Assembly: GCA_030754595.1 (NCBI GenBank)
Contig: JASLZZ010000126.1
Coordinates: 1 to 64,000 of the forward strand
Direction of reading: 5' to 3'
DNA: 64,000 nucleotides
Source: Nitrospinota bacterium
GTDB taxonomy: Bacteria > UBA8248
Position 1 is the stretch's first letter. The number at the start of each line of letters is the position of its first letter. Positions 35,000 to 46,456 of the stretch are shown in pieces. Position numbers and translations under genes: made by a program. The notes beneath the pieces are model-generated. The model had not been told where the DNA came from. It was given only the letters and a program-made list of their open reading frames with translations, and made no database searches.

Positions 35000-35398
35000 A
35001 TGCGCTATCTGGTTCGAGCGTTCGTGAAAAAAGGAAGGGAGCGGGCGCTGCTCGAGGCGGTCGAGTCGGGCGCACTCGGGCGCGGCTCCATCGCCTATCC
35101 CACCTACCTCAAATGCATGAAGAGCGCGCGGTTACTCGATTCGGGCCAGGTGCGATGGATCGAACCTTGCTACTGCCGGGAGGCGTTCGGCCCCGGCGGA
35201 GAGCTCCTCGAGGAGCTTCCCTACTGGCGGGAGTATTTCGAGGAGATCGACATTCGCTACACGACGACGCTCGAAAAGTGCGAGGGCTACCCCAACTGCG
35301 GGGACTGCGACTGCACCGAAAAGCTCGAAGCCAAACTCGCCCGCACCGGCCGCCGCTTTTTCACGGCCCTCAGAGAAATGGTCAATATCCCCGCTTAG
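35000..35398 (+). CDS. hypothetical Cys-rich protein
   Basis: GAGGGGG RBS, GC3-biased codons, CYC and C-x5-CxxCxC motifs. Confidence 0.7.
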   Translation: MRYLVRAFVKKGRERALLEAVESGALGRGSIAYPTYLKCMKSARLLDSGQVRWIEPCYCREAFGPGGELLEELPYWREYFEEIDIRYTTTLEKCEGYPNCGDCDCTEKLEAKLARTGRRFFTALREMVNIPA

Positions 35399-36429
35399 CC
35401 GTCCGCCTCATCTTCTGTTTCCGTTTTTTCCCGCTCCGCCAGGAACGACTCCGAACGGCCCCAGAGCTTGGCCAGCTTCCAGCGGTCGTGGAGCCAGAAA
35501 TACTGATCCGGCCTCTGGCGGATGAAACCCTCGATCTCCCGGTTGACAGCCGCAGTCAGGCGCTCGATCTCCCCGACCGAGTCCGCGTCGGTGTCTGGGT
35601 GAATCGGGTCGCTGAGAAGCACTTCATACTCCCGCCCGCCCGGTTTTCTCAGGCAGGCGACCACCATGATCGGCCGCCCGAAGGTGATGGCCAGCGCCGC
35701 CGGGCCCGTCGTCGTGCTCGCGGGCTTCCCGAAAAACGGAACGTCGATTCCCTTCATCCCGGCGTGTTGATCCGCCAGCAGGCCCACCGACCTTCCCTTG
35801 CGGAGCGCTGTGCGGAGGTGGAACAGCGCGTTTCGTTTGGCGAGAATTTCCTGGCCCGAGCCCGAGCGCATCTCGAAAAGATGTTTCTCTAGCCAGGGGT
35901 TGTCGAGCGGCCGGACGACTATCGTCACCGGAATACTGGCGAGAGTGGCCCCGTGGGCGATCAGCTCCCAGTTGCCCAGATGAGGAACCACGAAAATGCA
36001 CCCGCCCGCCTCGTCGTGAAGACGGCGGGCCCGGGCGAAGATATCATCCACCCCCTCGACCATCCGGCGGACATCGGCCTCGGCGCTCTCGAGGCGGAAG
36101 CGATAGAGATACTTCACGCTCTCGAGGCCGGTCAGAGCGAACGAGCGGCAGCTCGCCCGCGCCATCTGCGCCCGCTCGTCTCCGCTCAGTCCGGGAAAGG
36201 CGATCCCCAGGTTGGTCAGGAGAATTTTCCGGCGGCGCGGGGCGAGCGTGTAGATGGCCGATCCCGCCAGGGAGGCGGCGCCCCCGCACAGCCAAAGCGG
36301 CATCCAGCGGACCAGGGAAAGGATCGCGTAGACGAGAAGGAACTCTGCGTTTTGCCGGAGAGGGCTTTTGTCCTTGCTGCGGCGGCGTTTTTTGCGGGGG
36401 TTGGAGGCCCGCGCTGGAGACGGGCTCAC
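35395..36429 (-). CDS. LpxL/HtrB-family (lipid A / lysophospholipid) acyltransferase
   Basis: N-terminal TM, HLGNWE, RPLDNP, LADQH, VPFFG, PDQYFWLHDRWK; 4-bp overlap with the upstream KS-like gene. Confidence 0.9.
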   Translation of the reverse strand: MSPSPARASNPRKKRRRSKDKSPLRQNAEFLLVYAILSLVRWMPLWLCGGAASLAGSAIYTLAPRRRKILLTNLGIAFPGLSGDERAQMARASCRSFALTGLESVKYLYRFRLESAEADVRRMVEGVDDIFARARRLHDEAGGCIFVVPHLGNWELIAHGATLASIPVTIVVRPLDNPWLEKHLFEMRSGSGQEILAKRNALFHLRTALRKGRSVGLLADQHAGMKGIDVPFFGKPASTTTGPAALAITFGRPIMVVACLRKPGGREYEVLLSDPIHPDTDADSVGEIERLTAAVNREIEGFIRQRPDQYFWLHDRWKLAKLWGRSESFLAEREKTETEDEADG

Positions 36430-37757
36430 GGCGCCGAAAGGAGGGTGGCCGACGACTGGCCGCCGAGGCCGTGGCTCAGCGAAAGAAAAGTATTTCCCCG
36501 AATCCCGCGCTCCTCCGCCGGGATATCGAGAACCTGAAACTCCTTTTCGGCCCGCTCGAACCCCGGAGCCGGCGGAAGCGCACCCTCCTCAAGGGCGCGC
36601 AGACCGAGGATCATCTCGCCGATGTCGCTCGCCGAGCCCATATGGCCGGTGTATGGCTTCCAGGGCGCAATGGGAACCTTTTCGACTTCGACTTCTACCC
36701 CGGCAGCGGCTCCGGCCTCGGCGTTTCCGAGAAACGCCTTGAGCGCCCGCATCTCCATGCGGTCGCCTTTTTTGGTCCCGCTCCCATGGGGCAGGATGAA
36801 AGAAACCTCCCCGGCCGCCACGCCACCCTCCGCCACCGCCGAGCGGCAGGCCCTGGCCGCTGCTGTGAGAGGAACCGAGACATGCGCGCCCGAGGTGACT
36901 TCCTGAAAATTCCCGGTCCCCAGAATTCGTCCGATGGGGCGCGCCCCGCGCGCGCGCGCGGCGTCCGCCGCCTCGATCACAAGCGCCGCCGCCCCCTCGG
37001 CCGGGAAAAAACCGTCCCTCCGGCGGTCGAAGGGGCGGAACGACTCGGCTCCGTCGAGGGCGCGGGAGAGAATCCCCAAGCCGTCCAGCTCAAAGCGGAT
37101 CAGGGCGCTGATCCAGCAGCCGCAGCCCACCACGAGGCCGAAATCCGCCTTTCCCCACCGAAGGGCCCGGTCGCAGGCCTCCAGCGCCTGCGCCCCGCAC
37201 GAGGAAAGGCTCGAGAGACTTCCGTTCGTGCCCATGATTTCGTAGCTGGCCGAGAGGTAGCTGAACAAATTGTTCGCCAGCCCCTCGAGCAGATAAAAAG
37301 GGTTCACCTGGTGAAGGGCCAACTCGTTCAGCGCCTCGGCGTCGGGCGGCGCCCAGCCGGGCCCGGCCACCTCGGCGATGGACGAGTAAAAATCGAGATA
37401 TTCGAGCCGGGTAAAATCCCCCGAGCCGATGTAGAGGGACTTCCTCTCGGGCGGCAGGGCGGCGAAGTCCACGCCCGCGCTCTCAATCGCCTCGCGGGCG
37501 GCGTGAAGCCCGAGGATGGAGGAGCGGTTCAGGAACTTTCGCTGGCTCGCCAGCTTCGGCGGAACCTCGGGCGGATTGTCGCACCCGTCCACCGTGCCGA
37601 AGTAGAGAAAGTTCTCGGGAAAAGGGGCCTCCGCTTGTTGAGGCTGGCGCTCGATCCCCCGCCGCCCCGCGCGGACCGCCGCCCAGTTCTCATCGACCCC
37701 GGCCCCGAGCGGGGTGAGCATCCCCGCGCCCGTGATCCAGACCTCCCTGACTTCCAT
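36426..37757 (-). CDS. ketosynthase-fold protein with catalytic Cys replaced by Ser
   Basis: ITGAGMLTPLG, RPFDRRRDGF, HGSGT, K..GH; GTNGSLSSLSSCG aligns by eye to FabF GPN.S.STACASG with Ser at the Cys position. Confidence 0.8.
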   Translation of the reverse strand: MEVREVWITGAGMLTPLGAGVDENWAAVRAGRRGIERQPQQAEAPFPENFLYFGTVDGCDNPPEVPPKLASQRKFLNRSSILGLHAAREAIESAGVDFAALPPERKSLYIGSGDFTRLEYLDFYSSIAEVAGPGWAPPDAEALNELALHQVNPFYLLEGLANNLFSYLSASYEIMGTNGSLSSLSSCGAQALEACDRALRWGKADFGLVVGCGCWISALIRFELDGLGILSRALDGAESFRPFDRRRDGFFPAEGAAALVIEAADAARARGARPIGRILGTGNFQEVTSGAHVSVPLTAAARACRSAVAEGGVAAGEVSFILPHGSGTKKGDRMEMRALKAFLGNAEAGAAAGVEVEVEKVPIAPWKPYTGHMGSASDIGEMILGLRALEEGALPPAPGFERAEKEFQVLDIPAEERGIRGNTFLSLSHGLGGQSSATLLSAP

Positions 37758-37770
37758 CGCGCCTTCCGAT

Positions 37771-38223
37771 CTACGAGATTTCGACGTCGCGGGTGAGGAC
37801 GCGGAAAAGGTGCGCCTGCTCCTCGGGGTCCTCGTAGTCCTTGAGGCCCACCACCCGTCCCGAAAATTCGACGGCCACCTTGCGCTCGCCGCTCACCGAG
37901 GCGGCGCCCTTGTAAAGGCTCCGGCCCTCCTCCTCGCCTACGGCCTCGACCCGAAGTTCGATCTGATCGCCCGGCAGGGCGAAGCCGTAGTATTTAATCG
38001 TCTCGACCCGCTCGAGTAGGAACCAGCGCCCGCACTCCGAGCCCGCCGCCTCGAGCCACCCCGAAAGCTGGACCAGCGCCTCGAGGATCATCGAGCCGGG
38101 CATCACCGGAAACCGGGGAAAATGATACTCGAGGAAATCCTCGCTCATGGTGACGTTCTTGACGCCCTCCATGGACACCCCGCTCTCCCATGAGGTCACT
38201 CGGTCAACCAGCAAATAGCGCAT
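37771..38223 (-). CDS. FabZ-like 3-hydroxyacyl-ACP dehydratase
   Basis: LLVDRV, KNVTMSE, HFPRFPVMPGSMILEALVQ. Confidence 0.85.
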   Translation of the reverse strand: MRYLLVDRVTSWESGVSMEGVKNVTMSEDFLEYHFPRFPVMPGSMILEALVQLSGWLEAAGSECGRWFLLERVETIKYYGFALPGDQIELRVEAVGEEEGRSLYKGAASVSGERKVAVEFSGRVVGLKDYEDPEEQAHLFRVLTRDVEIS

Positions 38224-38239
38224 TCGCCGTCTCTCCCAT

Positions 38240-38665
38240 TTATTCCCCCGTCTCTCCGGCCTCACCCTCGCCGGCCACGCCCTCGCCCAGGAACATCACC
38301 GAGGCGACGGCGTAATTGTCGGCGTGGCTGATCGAAACCGTCGTCTGGCCTATCTTCAGCCGCCGGGCCATCTTCTCCATCGACCCGTGGAGCCGGAGGA
38401 CCGGCTTGCCCGAGGGGGCGGACTCCACCTCGACCTCCCGGAACCGGCCGGTGGCCCCGAAGCCGCCCATGCCCACCCCGAAGGCCTTCAGGCAGGCCTC
38501 CTTCGCCGCAAACCGCCCGGCCAGGTGGGGATAGGGATCGGGCCGGGAGTTGCAGTACCCGAGCTCCGCCTCGGTGTAGATGTCCTGCCCGAAGGCCTCT
38601 TGGCGATCAAAGGCCGCCTTGAGCCGGTCGATTTCGACGAGGTCGATCCCCTGGTACAAACGCAC
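38240..38665 (-). CDS. acpS: holo-ACP synthase
   Basis: GIDLVEI, LAGRFAAKEA.LKA, SISH...YAVASV. Confidence 0.92.
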   Translation of the reverse strand: MRLYQGIDLVEIDRLKAAFDRQEAFGQDIYTEAELGYCNSRPDPYPHLAGRFAAKEACLKAFGVGMGGFGATGRFREVEVESAPSGKPVLRLHGSMEKMARRLKIGQTTVSISHADNYAVASVMFLGEGVAGEGEAGETGE

Positions 38666-38681
38666 GCGCGCCCTCCCGGTC

Positions 38682-39434
38682 TCAGCCGATGTGCATCCCG
38701 CCGTCCACGGTGATGGCCTCGCCGTTGATGTAGTCCGCCGCCGGGGAGGCGAGAAACACCACGACCCCGGCGATGTCCCCCGGCTGGCCGAACCGCTTCG
38801 AGGGGATGCGCTCCATGATCCGGTCGCCGGCGCGTTTACGGACGACCTCGCTCATGTCAGTTTCGATCATTCCGGGCAGAACGGCGTTGAAGCGCAGGCC
38901 GCGCCCGCTCATCTCAGCCGCGCAAGCGCGCGTAAAAGAAATAACCCCGGCCTTGGCGGCGGCGTAGTTCGTCTGGCCCCCGCCGCCCATGACTCCGATG
39001 ATCGAGGAGATGTTGATCACACACCCCGTCCGCGCGCGCATCATGATCTCCGCCGCCGCCTTGGTGCAGTTGTAGACGCCGTTCAGGCTCACGCCGATGA
39101 CCTTGTCCCAGTCGGCGGGCTTCATCCTCAAGAGGAGGGTGTCCTTGATGACGCCCGCGTTGTTCACCAGGATATCCAGCGTACCGAAATCCTCCTTGAC
39201 CGATTCGAACATCGCGCCGACCTGCTCGAAGGAGGAGACGTCGGCCTGATAAGTCTCGGCGCGCCCTCCGGCCCCCTCGATTTCGGCCTTCACCTCGCCC
39301 GCCGCAATCTCCGACGCGCTGTAGTTGATCGCCACAGCCGCGCCCGACTCCGCCAGCGCGAGAGAGCAAGCGCGGCCGATGCCGCGGCCCCCGCCGGTGA
39401 CCAGTGCCACTTTTCCGCTTAGATCGATGTTCAT
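38682..39434 (-). CDS. fabG: 3-oxoacyl-ACP reductase
   Basis: [35 protein letters not shown]. Confidence 0.88.
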
Positions 39435-40706
39435 CTATGCCGCCTTTCCGACAACGAGGGTCGCGTTTTGTCCGCCAAAGCCAAACGAGTTTGAGATCGC
39501 CGCTGGAACAGGCATCCTGCGCGACTCGTTCGGAACATAATCCAGATCGCACCGGCGGTCGGGGTTTTCGAGATTCCGCGTGGGGTGCACCTCATCGCGC
39601 GCCACGCTCAGCGCCGTGAAAATGAGCTCGGGCGCCCCGCAGGCCGCGATCAGATGGCCGATCATCGACTTCGATGAACTGACGGCCAGGTCTCCGGCCG
39701 ATGGGCCGAACACTTCCTTGATCGCCAGCGTCTCGGCCGGGTCGTTGAGCTTCGTTCCCGTCCCGTGGGCGTTCACATATGCGATCTCGCCGGGGGCCAT
39801 CCCCGCGTCCCGGAGCGCCTCGCTCATCGACCGGGCCGCTCCCCGGCCCTTCGGGTCGGGGGCGGTCACCTGGTAGGCGTCCATGCTCGAGCCGTAGCCG
39901 CAGAGCCGGGCATGGACGCGCGCGCCCCGGCAGGCGGCGTGTTCCGCCGACTCGAGGAGGATCACCCCCGCCCCCTCGCCGACCACGAGCCCCGACCGCC
40001 TCCGATCGAAGGGCCGGCAAAGCGCCTCGGGCTCGGCGGCCGCCGTCGACGCCGCGCCGAGGAGGAGAAAAATCGCCATCCCCACCGGATGGATCATCGA
40101 GTCGGCCCCGCCGCAGAGGACGGCGTCCGCCTCCCCCCGGCGAATCGCGCGCATTCCGAGGCCAATCGCCTGCCCCGCCGCGGCGCAGGCCGAGGTCAGG
40201 GTGGCCGAGGGGCCCCGGAAGCCGGCCCACCTGGCGATCAGCGATGTGGCCCGCTCGGGCGGGTTTTGAAAATATCCCGAAGGGTGGGTCTTCTCAAGCT
40301 CCCCGGCGAATCGAACGGAGTCGAAACCCTCCCGCTCGCCGATCCAGGGGGCGAAGTCCTCGAGCCGGTAGGTGCTCAGCCCGGTTCCCATCATCACCCC
40401 TGAGCGCCGAGGGTCGGTCTCGCCCGGCGAGAGCCCCGCGTCCGCGAGGGCACTCCGGGCGGCGTCCAAGGCGAAAAGGACGCGCCGCTCACCCTCTGGG
40501 GCCAGTTCTTCGAGGAGGCGCTCGCGCAGGGATTCGATCTCACCGGCGGGCACCTCGCCGGCCCCGGCGATGGGCAGCCCGCCCGCCTCGAACGATGAGA
40601 CGGGCCTCACCCCCGATTCGCCCGCGAGGGCGCGACTCCAGGCCGTTTCGAGATCCGCCCCCAGGGCGGTCACCATGCCCATTCCGGTGATGAGAACTTC
40701 ACTCAC
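39435..40706 (-). CDS. beta-ketoacyl-ACP synthase (FabF-like, intact Cys-His-His)
   Basis: SACAAAG, NAHGTGT, SKSMIGHL, SNSFGFGGQN. Confidence 0.9.
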   Translation of the reverse strand: MSEVLITGMGMVTALGADLETAWSRALAGESGVRPVSSFEAGGLPIAGAGEVPAGEIESLRERLLEELAPEGERRVLFALDAARSALADAGLSPGETDPRRSGVMMGTGLSTYRLEDFAPWIGEREGFDSVRFAGELEKTHPSGYFQNPPERATSLIARWAGFRGPSATLTSACAAAGQAIGLGMRAIRRGEADAVLCGGADSMIHPVGMAIFLLLGAASTAAAEPEALCRPFDRRRSGLVVGEGAGVILLESAEHAACRGARVHARLCGYGSSMDAYQVTAPDPKGRGAARSMSEALRDAGMAPGEIAYVNAHGTGTKLNDPAETLAIKEVFGPSAGDLAVSSSKSMIGHLIAACGAPELIFTALSVARDEVHPTRNLENPDRRCDLDYVPNESRRMPVPAAISNSFGFGGQNATLVVGKAA

Positions 40707-41164
40707 GGGGCCTCCCAATCCCACCGGGGTTCGATCCAGCCGATATCGCGGTAAAATTTAGCAACCTCCTCGGGGTTTTTCTCCTTGAAGTGCGGAAAGA
40801 CAAAGCGCTCGGCGCTCGCTATCCGCTCCCCGTCCCGCTCCACCCAGGCCCGGCAATCGCTCCACCGCCGGCCGGTGTCCACGATCTCCCCGTGAAGCTC
40901 CACCGTCGCCCCCGCGCGGAGGTCGGCGGGAACCTCGAGATTGTTGATGAGCGATATCACGCAGGAGGTCTCACACTTGTGGGTATAAACCACGAGCCAG
41001 CCCGTGATCTGGGACATGGCCTCGACCAGGATCGAGCCCGGAATCAGCGGCGCCCTCGAGAAATGCTTATTGAGGTAGGCCTCCGACAACGGAAACGTCT
41101 TTACGGCGCGAATGCGATTTCCGCTTTCGAGCTCGATGATGCGGTCAAAGTAGAGAAACCGCAT
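40703..41164 (-). CDS. second FabZ-like dehydratase
   Basis: FLYFDRI, HFSRAPLIPGSILVEAMSQ; AGGAG RBS. Confidence 0.8.
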   Translation of the reverse strand: MRFLYFDRIIELESGNRIRAVKTFPLSEAYLNKHFSRAPLIPGSILVEAMSQITGWLVVYTHKCETSCVISLINNLEVPADLRAGATVELHGEIVDTGRRWSDCRAWVERDGERIASAERFVFPHFKEKNPEEVAKFYRDIGWIEPRWDWEAP

Positions 41165-41257
41165 GGCTTTGTCTCCTCTTGAAACAATCATCAAGTTGCA
41201 TGCAATGACTCAAGCCGTATGCAAAGCGCGGTATGCAAATGCGCCGCACGCAGTGCC

Positions 41258-42472
41258 TCAGGCTGGGCCGACGGCGAACGCCGCGCAGGCGCCGTCAAAC
41301 CCCTGCACCAAGACCAGCCCGGCCTCGAGGCGGGCGGCCTTCGGGCGGTCCGGAAACTCGAGAACATCCCCGCCCGAATTTCCCGCACCCGGGCTCGGCG
41401 GGACGGCACCCTCGGCCATCGCCCTCAGCGCGATGAGCAGATCCACCGCCGGCCCGCCCCCCAAAAGGTGGCCGAAGGCGCCCTTGGTCGCAAGAGCGAG
41501 GGGGCGGTGGCCGCCTAAAACGGCCGCGATCCCCTCGGCCTCGGCTTCGCCCTCCTCAACGCTTCCGCCGCCGTGGACTACCACCAGCCCCACCCGGCCG
41601 GGCCCGATTTCAGCCCTTTGAAGCGCGGCGGCGGCCGAATCCCGAACCGCTCCGGCCAGATCGCCGGGTTCGTCTCCGGCTGTGGCGCGTCCCCATCCTC
41701 TTATATAGCCGAGGCGGGGCTTCCCGCCCGCCACGCCCTCGGGTTCCAGCAACAAAGAGGCGGCTCCCTCGCCCAGGGCGGGGCCTCCATCCGGGGCGGC
41801 GTCCGGCTTCAACAGCCCCCGCTTCCGGTAGCGGGCCACCGACCTGACCGACACCGTCGGGCTGACCCCGGCGGCCAGGGCGGCGCGCGCCTTGCCCTCG
41901 CGAAGGGATTCGGCCGCCTCGATCACCGCCTGGGCGGCCGCCTCGGCCCCCGGGCTGAAGAGACCGTTCTCTCCCCTCAGGCCGAACTGAATCGCCACCT
42001 GGCAAAACGCTGTGGAGTTGAGCATCCCGAGCGGCCAGAGCGGAGGAATCTGGGTCATCCCCTCATTGAAAAACCGCCCCAAGTCCACGCCGCCACCTTC
42101 CACACGCGAGGCCTGGACGGCGGAGACGAAATCCGCCTCTCCGGGGTCCACCGAATCCATCCCGGCGAAAAAAGCCATCTCCTCGCCGGCGAGCCCGGCC
42201 GCATTTCCTCCGGCTTCAGCGAGGGCGTCCGAAACCGCCGCGAGGAGCATATGGGTGTGCCGCCCCATGAGGCGGGCGGCGCGGCGATCCGCCCCCAGCA
42301 TTTCCGGGCCGGGCGGGGCGCAACGCGCCGTCTCGATGGAAGAGAACCCGGCCAGTTCATCGTCGGGGGCGAGGAAACTTCTCCCTGCGCGGAGCGCCTC
42401 CCAGGCGGCGTCCAGACCCCTTCCCGCCGCCGTGACGATCCCCCCCCCGGTGACGGCGAGAGCGGCGGGCAT
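41258..42472 (-). CDS. ketosynthase-fold protein lacking the catalytic Cys (chain-length-factor-like)
   Basis: KS fold (GEGAA, KGAFGHLLG); GENGLFSPGAEAA where FabF has the STAC motif. Confidence 0.8.
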   Translation of the reverse strand: MPAALAVTGGGIVTAAGRGLDAAWEALRAGRSFLAPDDELAGFSSIETARCAPPGPEMLGADRRAARLMGRHTHMLLAAVSDALAEAGGNAAGLAGEEMAFFAGMDSVDPGEADFVSAVQASRVEGGGVDLGRFFNEGMTQIPPLWPLGMLNSTAFCQVAIQFGLRGENGLFSPGAEAAAQAVIEAAESLREGKARAALAAGVSPTVSVRSVARYRKRGLLKPDAAPDGGPALGEGAASLLLEPEGVAGGKPRLGYIRGWGRATAGDEPGDLAGAVRDSAAAALQRAEIGPGRVGLVVVHGGGSVEEGEAEAEGIAAVLGGHRPLALATKGAFGHLLGGGPAVDLLIALRAMAEGAVPPSPGAGNSGGDVLEFPDRPKAARLEAGLVLVQGFDGACAAFAVGPA

Positions 42473-42475
42473 CGG

Positions 42476-43795
42476 TCACTCACCTTCGTAGCGGCCGAGG
42501 CAAAGCGTTGCGTTTTGCCCGCCGAACCCGAAGCTGTTCGAAAGCGCGATCCGGTGCCCGGCGGCGCGCGTCTCGTTGGGCACATAATCCAGGTCGCACC
42601 GGGGGTCGGGGTTTTCGTAGTTGATCGTGGGAAGAATCTCGGAGCGGCGCATCCCCTCGAGGGCGAAGATCGCCTCGACGGCGCCCGCCGCTCCGATGGT
42701 GTGACCGATCAGCGACTTGTTCGAGCTGATCGGAACGCGCCCGGCGGCGTCCCCGAAAACCTCCTTTATGGCCTTGGTCTCGGTGAGATCGTTTTTCGGG
42801 GTCGAGGTGCCGTGGGCGTTGATGTATTCCACCTCGCCGGGCGAGACGCCGGCGTCGTCGAGCGCTCCACGCATCGCGAGAATTGCCCCCACCCCCTGGG
42901 GGTGCATGTCGGTGATGCGGAAGGCGTCGGCCGAATCGCCGTAGCCGAGCACCTCGCCCAGTATCGGCGCCCCGCGCGCGAGCGCATGTCCTAGTTCCTC
43001 GAGAACGATGGAGCCCGCCCCCTCGGACATCACAAATCCGTTTCGCCTCCGGTCGAAGGGCCGCGAGGCCCTTTGGGGGCTCTCGTATTTCTCCACCAAC
43101 GCCGTCAGCAGGACAAAGCCCAAAAAACCGCCGTAGGAGATCGCCGACTCGCACCCGCCCGCGATCATCGCGTCCGCCTTGCCGTCGCGGATGATGCGGA
43201 GCGCCTCGCCCACCGCCTGCCCCCCCGCCGCGCAGGCCGAGCAGACGGAGATCGTGGGGCCCTGGGCGTCGAACGCGGTCGCCACCACCGATGTCGCCAC
43301 GTCGATCTTCCGCCGGTAGAAATGAAGAAAATCGTAGCCGCCCGAGCGCATGAGATCGCCGAAATCCCACTTTCCCTCCCAGGGGGAATCGCCCCCCGGG
43401 CGCCAGTGGCGAAGCAGCTGAATCATTTCGGGGATATCGGCGTGCTCGCCGTGGGAGCCGACCGAGACGCCGACGCGGGAGCGATCAGAAATTCCGTCGA
43501 GGCGCGCGCGGACGGCGGCCTCGCCGGTGGCGATGAGCATCATGCGGACACCGCGCGTCGTGAGTTTGAGAAGCGGGCGGCGGGAGGGATCGTCGCGCTC
43601 TTCGATCCAGGCGTCGTCCACCTCGCCGGCTATCTGGCAGGGAAGCTTGGCGGGGTCGAACTGACGAATGAAATCGATTCCCGATTTTCCCTCGCGGGCG
43701 GCGTCGAAGCTCGCGGCGACATCTCCGCCGAGGGGGGTCATCATCCCATAGCCTGTGACAACGACGCGTTTCGAAGGCCGGGCCATGGAGGACAA
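42476..43795 (-). CDS. beta-ketoacyl-ACP synthase (FabF-like, intact Cys-His-His)
   Basis: SACAAGG, NAHGTST, NKSLIGHT, SNSFGFGGQN. Confidence 0.9.
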   Translation of the reverse strand: MSSMARPSKRVVVTGYGMMTPLGGDVAASFDAAREGKSGIDFIRQFDPAKLPCQIAGEVDDAWIEERDDPSRRPLLKLTTRGVRMMLIATGEAAVRARLDGISDRSRVGVSVGSHGEHADIPEMIQLLRHWRPGGDSPWEGKWDFGDLMRSGGYDFLHFYRRKIDVATSVVATAFDAQGPTISVCSACAAGGQAVGEALRIIRDGKADAMIAGGCESAISYGGFLGFVLLTALVEKYESPQRASRPFDRRRNGFVMSEGAGSIVLEELGHALARGAPILGEVLGYGDSADAFRITDMHPQGVGAILAMRGALDDAGVSPGEVEYINAHGTSTPKNDLTETKAIKEVFGDAAGRVPISSNKSLIGHTIGAAGAVEAIFALEGMRRSEILPTINYENPDPRCDLDYVPNETRAAGHRIALSNSFGFGGQNATLCLGRYEGE

Positions 43796-43838
43796 CTCCC
43801 GAAGAAACTCCGCGAAGAAACCCGGGGCGGCGGATGAA

Positions 43839-44396
43839 TCAGAAGATTTGTTTTTCTTCCTGGAGAGAGGTCAGCCAATTCTGGACCACTTCGTCGCCAC
43901 TCGGCAAAACGGCGGGCTTTCCGGTTTCGGAACAGACGATACGGGTTCCCTCATCGGTCTTCCAGTCCGCGCCGGCCGGGCTCTTCTCGGGCAAGAGGCC
44001 GAAAATGTCCTTCACCGCCGCCGACAGCGTCCGCGGGGTGACGAGGGCCGGAAGCTCGTCCACCGGAGTTCCCGGTTCGAGATCATCGGCCGCCTCGGTC
44101 AGGCGCATCTTGAGGACCTCCACGCCCTTTTCGGTGACAACGTTGTTCTCGTCGATTGCAACGCCCTCGCCGAAAAGCTCATCGACGTGCTCGAGAACGA
44201 ATTTGCGGGCCATCTTCACCCCGAACACCTGCTCCAGGCGAAAGTTCACGTCGAGAAAATCGAGGGAAAGAACGCCCAGATCGTCCACCAGCGAGCTATC
44301 GGGAGTAATGGAGTCCCGGTCCACGCCCGTAGTGTGGACGATAGCGTCGTAAACCTCCTGCATGATCCGTTCATCGTTGATCATGTTCTGCGGCAT
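43839..44396 (-). CDS. extended acyl carrier protein (AcpXL-like N-domain plus ~100-aa extension)
   Basis: ITPDSSLVDDLGVLSLDFLDV.F.LE..FGV with the phosphopantetheine Ser in LSL; 185 aa; GAGGAG RBS. Confidence 0.8.
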   Translation of the reverse strand: MPQNMINDERIMQEVYDAIVHTTGVDRDSITPDSSLVDDLGVLSLDFLDVNFRLEQVFGVKMARKFVLEHVDELFGEGVAIDENNVVTEKGVEVLKMRLTEAADDLEPGTPVDELPALVTPRTLSAAVKDIFGLLPEKSPAGADWKTDEGTRIVCSETGKPAVLPSGDEVVQNWLTSLQEEKQIF

Positions 44397-44494
44397 GCAA
44401 TTCTCCTCGTGCCTCTTGTAATCTCATGTCTCTATAATCCACGGCCGCATGTAATCCCAGGCGGGGCTTGCTGAAATACAGCGTCAAGGATGCA

Positions 44495-45289
44495 TCATCC
44501 GGGCGGCGTTGGCCAGCGCAAACGATTGCTCACGCCCCGGTCGGTGATGATCGTCTGGCCGCGGATGACATCGCTCGCGGGCCCCAGGAGGTAGTGGACC
44601 ACTCCGGCGACCTCCTCGGGGGAGAGAAAAAACCGCTCGGGCAACTTCTCCAGCTCTGGGTCCACCATCCGGAGCGTCTTGAACGAATCCGTCTTGACGA
44701 GGCCCGCGCAGACCGCGTTCACTGATATCCCCCGGTCGCCGTAGCTCTCCGCCCAGTATTTGACGGCGGTCTCCATCGCCGCCTTCATTGAGCCCAGCGG
44801 ATAGTCCGGATTCGCGAACCTGCTGCCCAGGCTCGAGAGGAATACCACCGCCCCGCCCTGCCGGGAGAGGGGGTCTAGAGCCTTCTGCATGCAGAAGACA
44901 TTTCCCAGGTAGTTCGTCTCGACCAGCTGGCGAAGGTCGCGCTCGAGTAATTTCTCCCAGGGCTTGAACGGCGCGCGGGCGGCGTTGAGCACCAGGAAAT
45001 CGAGCCGGCCGAACTCATCCTCAGCCTTCGAGAAGAGCTCCCCAGCGGCATCTTTTTTCCCGATGTCGGCCGGAACCGATATGGCGTGCACGCCCGCCTC
45101 TTCGGCCTCCCGGCACAGGGCCTCGGCGAGCTCTCCCGAGCGCCCCCGCCCCGAGCGGTGGTTGATCACCAGATTCACTCCCGCCCGGGCCAGCCGCCGG
45201 GCCACCGCCGCCCCGATCCCGCGCGAGCCGCCGGTGATCAAAGCGACCTTGCCCTGAAAATGGGGTTCAGCTTCATTTGAGGGATTCAC
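44495..45289 (-). CDS. SDR oxidoreductase, FabL-like enoyl-ACP reductase candidate
   Basis: TGGSRGIG, NAARAPFKP, SSLGS, Y-x5-K spacing; GTG start after GAGG. Confidence 0.7.
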   Translation of the reverse strand: MNPSNEAEPHFQGKVALITGGSRGIGAAVARRLARAGVNLVINHRSGRGRSGELAEALCREAEEAGVHAISVPADIGKKDAAGELFSKAEDEFGRLDFLVLNAARAPFKPWEKLLERDLRQLVETNYLGNVFCMQKALDPLSRQGGAVVFLSSLGSRFANPDYPLGSMKAAMETAVKYWAESYGDRGISVNAVCAGLVKTDSFKTLRMVDPELEKLPERFFLSPEEVAGVVHYLLGPASDVIRGQTIITDRGVSNRLRWPTPPG

Positions 45290-45568
45290 CGGAATCCTCG
45301 CAATTTCGAAAACGCCAACCGGCGCCAATCAAACGGGAACCACCGCGGGCGGGAGCCTTCGCGCCCCGGACCGGTAAGCGGCCACCCGGACGCCAAACGC
45401 CTCGTTTATAGCATCCGGGCCCCCGGCTATCAATATTGGAGATAGGGGGCGATACCGAAGGGCTCTAAAAATTGGACTTTGAATCCTCGCCCCTCCCGGA
45501 CTAAAATACCCGCGTGCCGTTTTTCTTCCGAGTCCACCCGGCTCTTTTCCGCTGATGGGGGTGACGCG

Positions 45569-46456
45569 ATGGATCCTCTTCAAATCCAGGAACTGCCCAA
45601 GCTTCGGCAACCAACCCTTCTGCTCGCCTTCTCCGGCTGGAACGATGCCAGCAGCTCCGCCACAACTGCGGCGAGCTATATCTGCGAGGAGCTCGGAGGC
45701 GCCGAATTCGCCTCCATCGAGTCCGACAGTTTCTACAATTTTCAGGACATGCGGCCCATGGTGACCCTGGACGAGGACGGGATGCGCGATATCACCTGGC
45801 CCGCAAATACTTTCTACGCCTGCGAGACCCCCCGGCTCGCCAACGATCTGATTCTTTTCGTCGGGGCCGAGCCCCACTTGCAGTGGAAGAATTTCACCCG
45901 GCTAATACTCTCGGTGGCCCAACAATGCGACGTCCGCATGGTGGTGACGCTGGGGGCGTTACTCGCCGACGTCTACCACCGCAACGCCATCAAGATCACC
46001 GGCTCGTCCACCGATTTGGAGCTGGCCGCACGGCTCGGCCTGAAGCGGTCGGGATACGAAGGTCCAACCGGCATCGTCGGAATCCTGAACAACTTGTTCC
46101 GGGACGAGAAATTACCCGCCGTCAGCGTCTGGGCAAACGTGCCCCACTACGTCAACGTATCGCCGAACCCGAAGGCCGCCCTCGCCCTCGTCCGCCGCCT
46201 CTCGGAGTTTCTTTCGCTCGATGTCAGCTACTCCGACCTCGAAATCGGATCGCAGGATTTCGACGACAAGGTCGAACGCGCCCTCGAATCGAACAAGGCG
46301 GTCAAGGAGTACGTCGATGAGCTCAGGCTCAGGAGCAGCATGGAGGATGAGGGGGAATCCGGCGGTCTTCCCTCGGGCGAGGATCTCACCCGGGAGATCG
46401 AGCGCTTTCTACGCGAACGGGGCGAGAACCACGAAGACAACGGCGAGGACACCTGA
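45569..46456 (+). CDS. PAC2 (proteasome assembly chaperone) family protein
   Basis: AFSGWNDA, EP.LQW, TLGALLAD, YEGPTGIVG, WANVPHY, PNPKAALAL. Confidence 0.85.
   Translation: MDPLQIQELPKLRQPTLLLAFSGWNDASSSATTAASYICEELGGAEFASIESDSFYNFQDMRPMVTLDEDGMRDITWPANTFYACETPRLANDLILFVGAEPHLQWKNFTRLILSVAQQCDVRMVVTLGALLADVYHRNAIKITGSSTDLELAARLGLKRSGYEGPTGIVGILNNLFRDEKLPAVSVWANVPHYVNVSPNPKAALALVRRLSEFLSLDVSYSDLEIGSQDFDDKVERALESNKAVKEYVDELRLRSSMEDEGESGGLPSGEDLTREIERFLRERGENHEDNGEDT

Follow-up and report, generated by a model that had tools for sequence, protein, structure and literature searches.

The 64,000-nucleotide window analysed here (contig JASLZZ010000126.1, positions 1 to 64,000, of the Nitrospinota bacterium assembly GCA_030754595.1) carries eleven open reading frames (ORFs) at 35395-45328, all on the minus strand and of high third-position GC, which form a real, conserved and uncharacterised operon, most likely an accessory fatty-acid synthase (FAS) that is coupled to the late lipid A acyltransferase of its lineage and is a variant of the AcpXL/LpxXL type. 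The more specific proposal, in which we infer the catalysis, the acceptor and the nature of the chain, is that an accessory type II FAS built around housekeeping FabG, AcpS and LpxL genes makes a special acyl chain for lipid A, and we judge it about as probable as its negation. Gene products were assigned by using Pfam and NCBIfam (18,950 NCBIfam models), and in order of transcription they are a short-chain dehydrogenase/reductase (SDR1), an acyl carrier protein (ACPx), two ketosynthase-type proteins (KS1 and KS2), a FabZ-like dehydratase (DH1), a third ketosynthase (KS3), FabG, AcpS, a second dehydratase (DH2), a fourth ketosynthase-type protein (KS4) and an LpxL-family acyltransferase (SDR1-ACPx-KS1-KS2-DH1-KS3-FabG-AcpS-DH2-KS4-LpxL). 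The widest intergenic spacing is 98 nt (SDR1/ACPx), and several neighbouring ORFs overlap or abut. This analysis bears out the eleven co-oriented genes and the assignments given to them in a first-pass annotation of the same DNA.

All eleven genes were found in identical order in each of the eight relatives' loci that were fetched, with the same PAC2-family and small-ORF flanks wherever the contig reached them, so the arrangement is not due to chance. KS4 orthologues were detected in 19 of 24 other genomes of the source family. By profile search, ACPx was present in 35 of 41 other genomes of this family (one of the six lacking it is just 67% complete) and in 0 of 9 genomes from the three other families of the phylum. 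The operon is near-universal in one family of uncultured marine Nitrospinota-type bacteria and, within the phylum, is restricted to that family. In one of these eight loci (L024, 3433-4726, from the closed genome G015) KS4 is split into two overlapping pieces by a frameshift or an assembly error.

The LpxL-family acyltransferase gene (35395-36429) is the last of the operon. Its product scores 174.9 bits on PF03279 (Lip_A_acyltrans; gathering cut-off 22.3) and has the catalytic dyad of the family, the H-x4-E motif being intact as PHLGNWE and aligned with H132-E137 of the E. coli enzyme. No second PF03279 match was found in the window genome (G000), a 3.55-Mb metagenome-assembled genome (MAG; 96.9% complete, 6.4% contamination) on which all of our single-copy statements rest. 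Exactly one PF03279 match was found in 23 of 24 other source-family genomes, and the operon copy is the only LpxL in two of five operon-bearing genomes of other phyla. On the simplest reading, the operon LpxL would be the sole late LpxL-type lipid A acyltransferase in the source family. A complete Raetz lipid A pathway is encoded outside the operon, with LpxC on one contig and the remainder in a second locus, the lipid A locus (contig C77), of the order BamA-Skp-LpxD-FabZ-LpxA-(GFO/IDH/MocA oxidoreductase)-LpxI-LpxB-DUF374 (LpxJ-like)-WaaA-LpxK. The GFO/IDH/MocA oxidoreductase between lpxA and lpxI (L087:4647-5615) is a side observation; a gene of this kind (gnnA-like) may mark a 2,3-diamino-glucose lipid A backbone.

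The top NCBIfam model for the operon LpxL was NF005120 (LpxXL; 143.5 bits, cut-off 273), on which a rhizobial LpxXL scored 362 bits; identity between the two proteins was 26-28%. In a tree of 33 rows, a single clade with a Shimodaira-Hasegawa-like approximate likelihood ratio (SH-aLRT) support of 100 united the operon-linked copies from the Nitrospinota-type family, from NC10, from a 'delta' MAG and from two Syntrophobacteraceae, along with three copies left in operon-less relatives. Copies from the other families of the phylum made up a separate clade (support 98), and where an operon-bearing genome has a second LpxL (NC10 and 'delta'), this copy was placed outside the operon-linked clade. 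That operon-linked LpxLs of several phyla fall into one clade indicates that LpxLs of this type and the FAS genes travel together. A long stem (0.95) leads to the LpxLs of the small-genome, operon-less genus.

The genes of the operon fall into a housekeeping trio and an accessory set. Elsewhere in the genome there is a primary fab locus (contig C77; YceD-PlsX-FabH-FabD-AcpP-FabF-RNase III), in which FabD leads directly to AcpP with no fabG and FabF scores 645 bits, above its model cut-off; the housekeeping FabZ sits in the lipid A locus, outside the operon. The operon FabG, a 3-oxoacyl-ACP reductase (38682-39434), is the top TIGR01830 match in the genome (291.7 bits versus 251 for the runner-up), and the operon AcpS, a holo-ACP synthase (38240-38665; PF01648, ACPS), is the sole PF01648 match. 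At the PAC2/small-ORF site, all three operon-less relatives examined (G007, G011 and G013; two belong to a genus whose genomes measure ~2.1 Mb, the third to a genus otherwise operon-bearing) carry FabG-AcpS-LpxL alone, and a 55-residue DH2 remnant in G011 shows that the accessory genes were deleted there. The stand-alone trio and the single copies mark these as housekeeping genes: AcpS and LpxL are housekeeping in this lineage, the operon FabG is probably the general FabG of the organism, and the operon FabG and AcpS appear to be shared with the primary FAS. The other eight genes (SDR1, ACPx, KS1-KS4, DH1 and DH2) are accessory and wrapped around the trio. No malonyl transferase was found among the eleven operon genes, so the primary-locus FabD must serve the operon.

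These results bear on two statements of the first-pass annotation. It had described the system as self-contained, with its own phosphopantetheinyl transferase, and this description is not supported, because AcpS and LpxL are the sole genome copies, FabG is the top match, the trio persists alone in relatives and a malonyl transferase is absent from the operon. It had also allowed for these being the genome's only fab genes; for the KS, DH and ACP functions the primary locus and the FabZ encoded elsewhere speak against this; FabG and AcpS, however, look to be in common use.

The carrier protein ACPx (43839-44396; PF00550, 3.9e-6) is conserved along its full 185 residues, identity being 70-86% among members of the family and 40-52% for copies from other phyla. 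Its top NCBIfam model was NF005079 (AcpXL; 50.4 bits, cut-off 83), which covered residues 13-71 alone and on which rhizobial AcpXL scored 139.9 bits. By blastp, ACPx matched AcpXL with 47% identity over 57 residues (1e-15) and E. coli AcpP with an E-value of 7e-7. The tail (~43839-43985) carries a CxxC...CxxC motif of four Cys in 12 of 12 rows from other phyla (loci L062-L075) and in 0 of 12 Nitrospinota-type rows, all 12 of which keep one Cys of the four. We read the four-Cys tail as a putative zinc-ribbon-like signature in other phyla that is degenerate in the Nitrospinota-type proteins. We know of no fusion of an ACP with a zinc ribbon, and a literature search on ACP, zinc ribbon and lipid A found none.

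An AlphaFold2 model of ACPx (predicted local distance difference test score, pLDDT, 92; predicted TM-score, pTM, 0.87) has a four-helix ACP core in which two additional helices separate helix II from helix III; a beta-hairpin and a last helix make up the C-terminal part. A Foldseek search with this model gave no match at E ≤ 1e-3; the best, at 2e-3, was 2kw2/3lmo, RPA2022 of Rhodopseudomonas palustris, a 'specialized acyl carrier protein' that aligned over 120 columns (~60 for ordinary ACPs). VIA-align placed ordinary ACPs equal to RPA2022 (Z 8-10.6). Tail residues 138-185 were barely covered by these structure comparisons, and the ESM Atlas listed PP-binding clusters of similar length without alignment. 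The modelled structure suggests only an ACP core plus additions, and nothing more specific.

KS1 (42476-43795), KS2 (41258-42472), KS3 (39435-40724) and KS4 (36426-37757) were assigned by Pfam/NCBIfam matches, and their active-site residues were read from an alignment to E. coli FabF, which agrees with the earlier calls (Cys, no Cys, Cys and Ser, respectively). KS1 and KS3, the condensing ketosynthases, have Cys-His-Lys-His intact. KS2 has Ala at the Cys position, and its orthologues have Ala or Pro, with Cys in 0 of 6 and His-Lys-His kept in 4 of 6. In KS4 Ser replaces Cys, giving Ser-His-Lys-His in seven of eight orthologues, which represent four phylum-level groups (the exception, a Planctomycetota protein, is degenerate); KS4 lacks the Cys-His-His triad of an elongating FabF-type ketosynthase and retains both His and the Lys, so that it has lost the thiol but not the residues used in malonyl decarboxylation. 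In older work on FabB mutants, Cys-to-Ser ketosynthases are said to keep decarboxylase activity. A Cys-to-Gln change in a ketosynthase is described as yielding a malonyl decarboxylase, as outlined in PMC9006962. KS2 is a candidate non-condensing partner of the chain-length-factor kind, and KS4 may either decarboxylate malonyl-ACP, as a primer maker, or be the partner of KS1 that does not condense. Decarboxylases of the ketosynthase type and chain-length and chain-initiation factors of polyketide synthases (PKS) resemble KS4 and KS2 in keeping His-Lys-His and losing the Cys nucleophile, with the difference that the PKS proteins have Gln for Cys and the operon has Ser (KS4) or Ala/Pro (KS2).

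KS1 aligned end to end with NF005076 (the FabF1XL model; 338.8 bits, cut-off 629) and in two stretches with the fabF model TIGR03150 (421 bits). On NF005084 (FabF2XL, cut-off 320), KS3 scored 48.8 bits and KS4 46.6 bits, and KS2 had no match. A ketosynthase tree of 39 rows, from which two degenerate Planctomycetota rows and the short ApeC were omitted, resolved four clean orthogroups (support 95 for KS1 and 100 for KS4) and left the deep branches unresolved. In this tree FabF1XL was grouped with the fast-evolving KS2, KS4 and FabF2XL rows (support 90), which is probably long-branch attraction and no reliable evidence on the kinship of KS1 and FabF1XL.

DH1 (40703-41194; PF07977, 7.6e-11) and DH2 (37771-38265; PF07977, 3e-18) are FabZ-like dehydratases with C-terminal extensions, and both retain the FabZ catalytic His and Glu in 8 of 8 orthologues aligned. 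By blastp, rhizobial FabZXL matched DH1 at 3e-17 and DH2 at 9e-15. SDR1 (44495-45328; Pfam adh_short_C2, 9e-46) has as its closest PDB sequence 3oic, the NADPH-dependent enoyl-ACP reductase FabL of Bacillus subtilis (6e-35 over residues 25-267; the next match 5e-30). On the FabL equivalog model NF005975 it scores 177.4 bits, under the cut-off of 328, and the model is unspecific in the window genome, where five other places score higher than SDR1. A YPLGxMK motif (Tyr-x5-Lys) is present in 10 of 10 SDR1 orthologues aligned, and the aligned FabL segment reads Tyr-x6-Lys, the residues of which we take to be the catalytic Tyr and Lys. The FabL-like enoyl reductase of the first-pass annotation is weakly supported: the best PDB match agrees with it, and the unspecific model and the different Tyr/Lys spacing do not. 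As a side observation, at least five tandem SDR genes lie on another contig (C8:586-5167), where the FabL model scores up to 206 bits, above SDR1. Of the general enoyl reductases, a FabI type was not recognised in the genome (the best match to an E. coli FabI query was 63.7 bits at 30% identity, among generic SDRs), a FabK-type match (Pfam NMO) was marginal at 28.6 bits, and a search of the genome with the Pfam FabV domain gave nothing, the control being likewise silent in every genome.

In public genomes, 49 related loci were found. By record title, 33 are Nitrospinota-type or of no stated taxon, and the rest are from Syntrophobacter(aceae) (3), 'delta proteobacterium' (2), NC10 (1), Planctomycetota (2), Nitrospirota (5, including Thermodesulfovibrio and Magnetobacterium) and Rhizobiales (3), the last matching only over the first ~60 residues of ACPx, i.e. 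AcpXL. Variants were compared in the 12 non-rhizobial loci of other phyla. The complete eleven-gene set is present in two of these; KS2 and KS3 are missing in two, FabG and AcpS in one (L072), and KS2, KS3 and FabG in the NC10 locus. Across variants KS2 and KS3 are gained or lost jointly, both being absent in the 8- and 9-gene forms, and SDR1 is kept in every one. DH2 directly precedes KS4-LpxL in all LpxL-bearing variants, and DH2-KS4-LpxL are adjacent in Nitrospinota-type, Syntrophobacteraceae, 'delta proteobacterium' and NC10 loci, including L072 with its FabG and AcpS missing. From these comparisons the core set is SDR1, ACPx, KS1, DH1, DH2, KS4 and LpxL. The genes flanking the operon differ completely among four other phyla and are unrelated housekeeping genes, with no conserved neighbour that hints at function; the complete difference of flanks between phyla indicates that the unit moved as a block. 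On a Ca. Magnetobacterium casense contig (L066, 8495-16085), which like the other Nitrospirota loci (e.g. L064) has only SDR1-ACPx-KS1 of the operon, a Wzx-like 'Polysacc_synt' protein follows these three genes. Beyond an oppositely oriented scpB, the same contig encodes an NAD-dependent protein of the epimerase family together with a class I/II aminotransferase, a pair that may resemble gene pairs for ceramide reductase and serine palmitoyltransferase.

In the mechanism that we propose, the single AcpS would activate both AcpP and ACPx, and the primary-locus FabD would load malonate onto ACPx. KS4 would decarboxylate malonyl-ACPx to an acetyl primer, or act as the non-condensing partner of KS1. 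Condensations would be carried out by KS3, with the Cys-less KS2, and by KS1, keto reduction by FabG, dehydration by DH1 and DH2, and enoyl reduction by SDR1. The product on ACPx would be an unusual chain, probably long and mostly saturated, which LpxL would move to lipid A as a secondary (acyloxyacyl) chain. A bolder version, which we put forward tentatively and consider somewhat improbable, is that the operon represents an unrecognised, multi-phylum class of FAS for lipopolysaccharide (LPS) tailoring, with an ACP that has an insert and a zinc-ribbon tail, a KS4 of the Ser-His-His type that makes the primer by malonyl-ACP decarboxylation, two KS/KS-like pairs, a structurally new chain (e.g. 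very long, possibly membrane-spanning or mid-chain-modified) and a co-evolved LpxL, the ancestral late acyltransferase having been replaced in the source family. For the lipid A proposal as a whole, the earlier idea of a dedicated ACP assembly line coupled to an LpxL-type transferase has gained circumstantial support.

Several observations weigh against an accessory FAS dedicated to lipid A and allied to the rhizobial system. All rhizobial equivalog cut-offs are missed (ACP 50 versus 83, KS1 339 versus 629, LpxL 144 versus 273 and, for FabF2XL, at most 49 versus 320); KS1 shares more identity with the FabF of its own genome (42%) than with FabF1XL (38%); and the operon LpxL clade groups with rhizobial LpxXL weakly (support 84, long branches). 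The role of SDR1 as candidate enoyl-ACP reductase of the accessory system rests on pathway logic, and since no FabI, FabK or FabV was recognised, this role could be broader than proposed. The trio FabG-AcpS-LpxL standing alone in three relatives means that the co-location of LpxL could be historical rather than functional. Among the 12 loci of other phyla, one Planctomycetota locus has ten genes with LpxL not adjacent, and the five Nitrospirota loci have SDR1-ACPx-KS1 alone, without LpxL; these variants suggest that ACPx can serve other ends. The stand-alone trio and these LpxL-less variants, together with AcpS and LpxL being sole genome copies and with the flippase-like, epimerase and aminotransferase genes near the L066 locus, are what favours the strongest alternative, that the eight accessory genes make a product other than lipid A (another membrane or secreted lipid, or a chain of a sphingolipid-like compound or glycolipid) and lie within an old housekeeping FabG-AcpS-LpxL operon only by their need for FabG and AcpS. 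We regard this alternative as unlikely, since DH2 and KS4 stand between AcpS and LpxL in all LpxL-bearing variants, DH2-KS4-LpxL stay together in L072 where FabG and AcpS are missing, and the operon-linked LpxLs across phyla are one clade, to which the remaining LpxLs of these phyla do not belong.

The remaining alternatives fare worse than a lipid A chain. An aryl-polyene (APE) or polyene pigment cluster of the highly reducing type II PKS kind, for which the parts list superficially resembles the E. coli CFT073 APE cluster, is very improbable: in blastp against the CFT073 proteins, LpxL matched ApeD at E 1.2, DH1 and DH2 matched ApeP at 0.24 and 0.48 and ApeI at 7e-4 and 5e-3, and KS2 had no match to ApeC, so that no significant similarity links the two clusters in acyltransferase, dehydratases or chain-length factor, and an aryl-polyene kinship is not supported. 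KS1 and KS3 scored higher with FabF (257 and 243 bits) than with ApeO (151 and 170) or ApeR (197 and 189), an enoyl-reductase-like SDR is present in all variants, which speaks against a polyene, and no adenylating starter enzyme, thioesterase, glycosyltransferase, methyltransferase or LolA/MMPL export gene was found in the eleven genes or the 22 flanking ORFs. We see hardly any likelihood in a pathway to pimeloyl-ACP for biotin, as in the FAS-like set of Desulfovibrio vulgaris. The gene kinds resemble DVU2560-2563 as that set is sketched in PMC10102598, and BioC was found in 0 of 34 phylum genomes searched, regardless of the operon, with BioB common, so that the pimelate route in the phylum would not be of the BioC/BioH type; yet no bio genes were found in the operon or the adjoining ORFs scanned, BioB is present in 4 of 5 operon-less source-family genomes and in 9 of 9 other-family genomes without ACPx, and a C7 pathway has no use for a conserved LpxL or for four KS genes. 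Least probable of all is that the operon is the organism's primary FAS: its FabG and AcpS do appear general, and FabI, FabK and FabV were not recognised elsewhere in the genome, but the canonical PlsX-FabH-FabD-AcpP-FabF locus (FabF 645 bits) and the FabZ of the lipid A locus are in place, and 5 of 24 source-family genomes are without KS4 and 6 of 41 without ACPx (the 67%-complete genome among them).

Regarding gene boundaries, the longest ORF of SDR1 begins at 45328, and 45289, the position given in the first-pass annotation, is a downstream in-frame GTG; both starts are possible. For DH1 and DH2, alignments point to starts further downstream, at 41164 and 38223, respectively. The flanks are unrelated to the operon, with a thiamine pyrophosphate (TPP) enzyme and a small conserved ORF at one side and a PAC2-family gene and a response regulator at the other. 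The immediate flankers, a 132-aa ORF without Pfam match (35000-35398, plus strand) and the PAC2-family gene (45479-46456, plus strand), are both syntenic across the family. A Pfam/NCBIfam scan including 22 flanking ORFs found no adenylation enzyme, methyltransferase, glycosyltransferase or radical S-adenosylmethionine (SAM) gene within or directly adjoining the operon, in line with the first-pass annotation. Promoter and terminator scan counts were at chance level (11 terminator-like sites in the region versus 9.5 expected).

Near-identical DNA was present in 17 seawater or marine metagenome runs, of which 10 are possibly the source sample and the other 7 come from five studies. Short contigs from RNA libraries of two studies matched LpxL, KS4, FabG, KS3, KS1, ACPx and SDR1 without mismatch. 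These matches are a weak hint of expression, DNA carry-over being possible and strand, level and co-transcription not being resolvable from them; gene joints within these contigs have short sides (21-27 letters) and were disregarded.

Lipid A acylation governs the permeability, stiffness and recognition of the outer membrane, and the Rhizobiales-type AcpXL/LpxXL system is the only one known to us in which an acyl chain of lipid A has a synthase of its own. The operon brings together three enzymological oddities, namely a Ser-His-His ketosynthase homologue, an ACP with a zinc-ribbon-derived tail and a Tyr-x5-Lys SDR as candidate enoyl reductase. Relatives in which the eight accessory genes are deleted and FabG-AcpS-LpxL are kept constitute a natural experiment on the product. 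Literature searches (acpXL/lpxXL, Nitrospina lipid A/fatty acid, ACP zinc ribbon and LpxL clusters) found no paper describing the operon, and no gene-for-gene match to a characterised cluster was found.

Among known systems, the APE cluster of E. coli CFT073 (L096) shares with the operon a type II logic with a KS, a chain-length factor, an extra KS, a ketoreductase, two dehydratases, one or more ACPs and a membrane acyltransferase; the operon lacks its starter ligase, thioesterase, glycosyltransferase and exporter and has an enoyl-reductase-like SDR. The Desulfovibrio vulgaris biotin cluster DVU2558-2565 is described in outline as a FAS-like set among bioF/A/D/B with a proposed role in pimeloyl-ACP formation (PMC10102598). 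Likened by that description alone, this set and the operon each combine a FabF-like KS and a FabG-like reductase with a specialised ACP and a pair of FabZ-like proteins; unlike the set as described, the operon ends in LpxL, contains four KS genes and occurs irrespective of BioB.

The rhizobial acpXL-fabZXL-fabF2XL-fabF1XL-adhA2XL-lpxXL cluster makes the 27-OH-C28 very-long-chain fatty acid on lipid A, as summarised in PMC11901934. The rhizobial proteins used for comparison came from three loci and satisfy NF005079 (AcpXL), NF005084 (FabF2XL), NF005076 (FabF1XL) and NF005120 (LpxXL). Both systems consist of co-oriented genes with a dedicated ACP, a FabZ-like dehydratase, an active KS adjoining a Cys-less KS and a terminal LpxL-family transferase, and rhizobial FabZXL, like DH1 and DH2, has a C-terminal extension beyond FabZ. 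The operon differs in having four KS-type genes versus two and two dehydratases versus one, and in carrying FabG and AcpS inside the cluster. Its SDR replaces the medium-chain dehydrogenase/reductase (MDR) AdhA2XL (SDR1 versus AdhA2XL, E 0.47), and no AdhA2XL-type gene is found among the eleven. ACPx is twice as long as AcpXL, with an insert and a zinc-ribbon-derived tail. Where KS4 has Ser in place of Cys and keeps His-Lys-His, rhizobial FabF2XL carries Gln or Glu instead of the Cys, and its Lys and one of the His residues are gone. The top NCBIfam models and blastp matches uphold the earlier choice of this cluster as nearest analogue: judged by gene content and similarity, acpXL-lpxXL is the closest known system, and the operon would work in a similar way without being a member of it.

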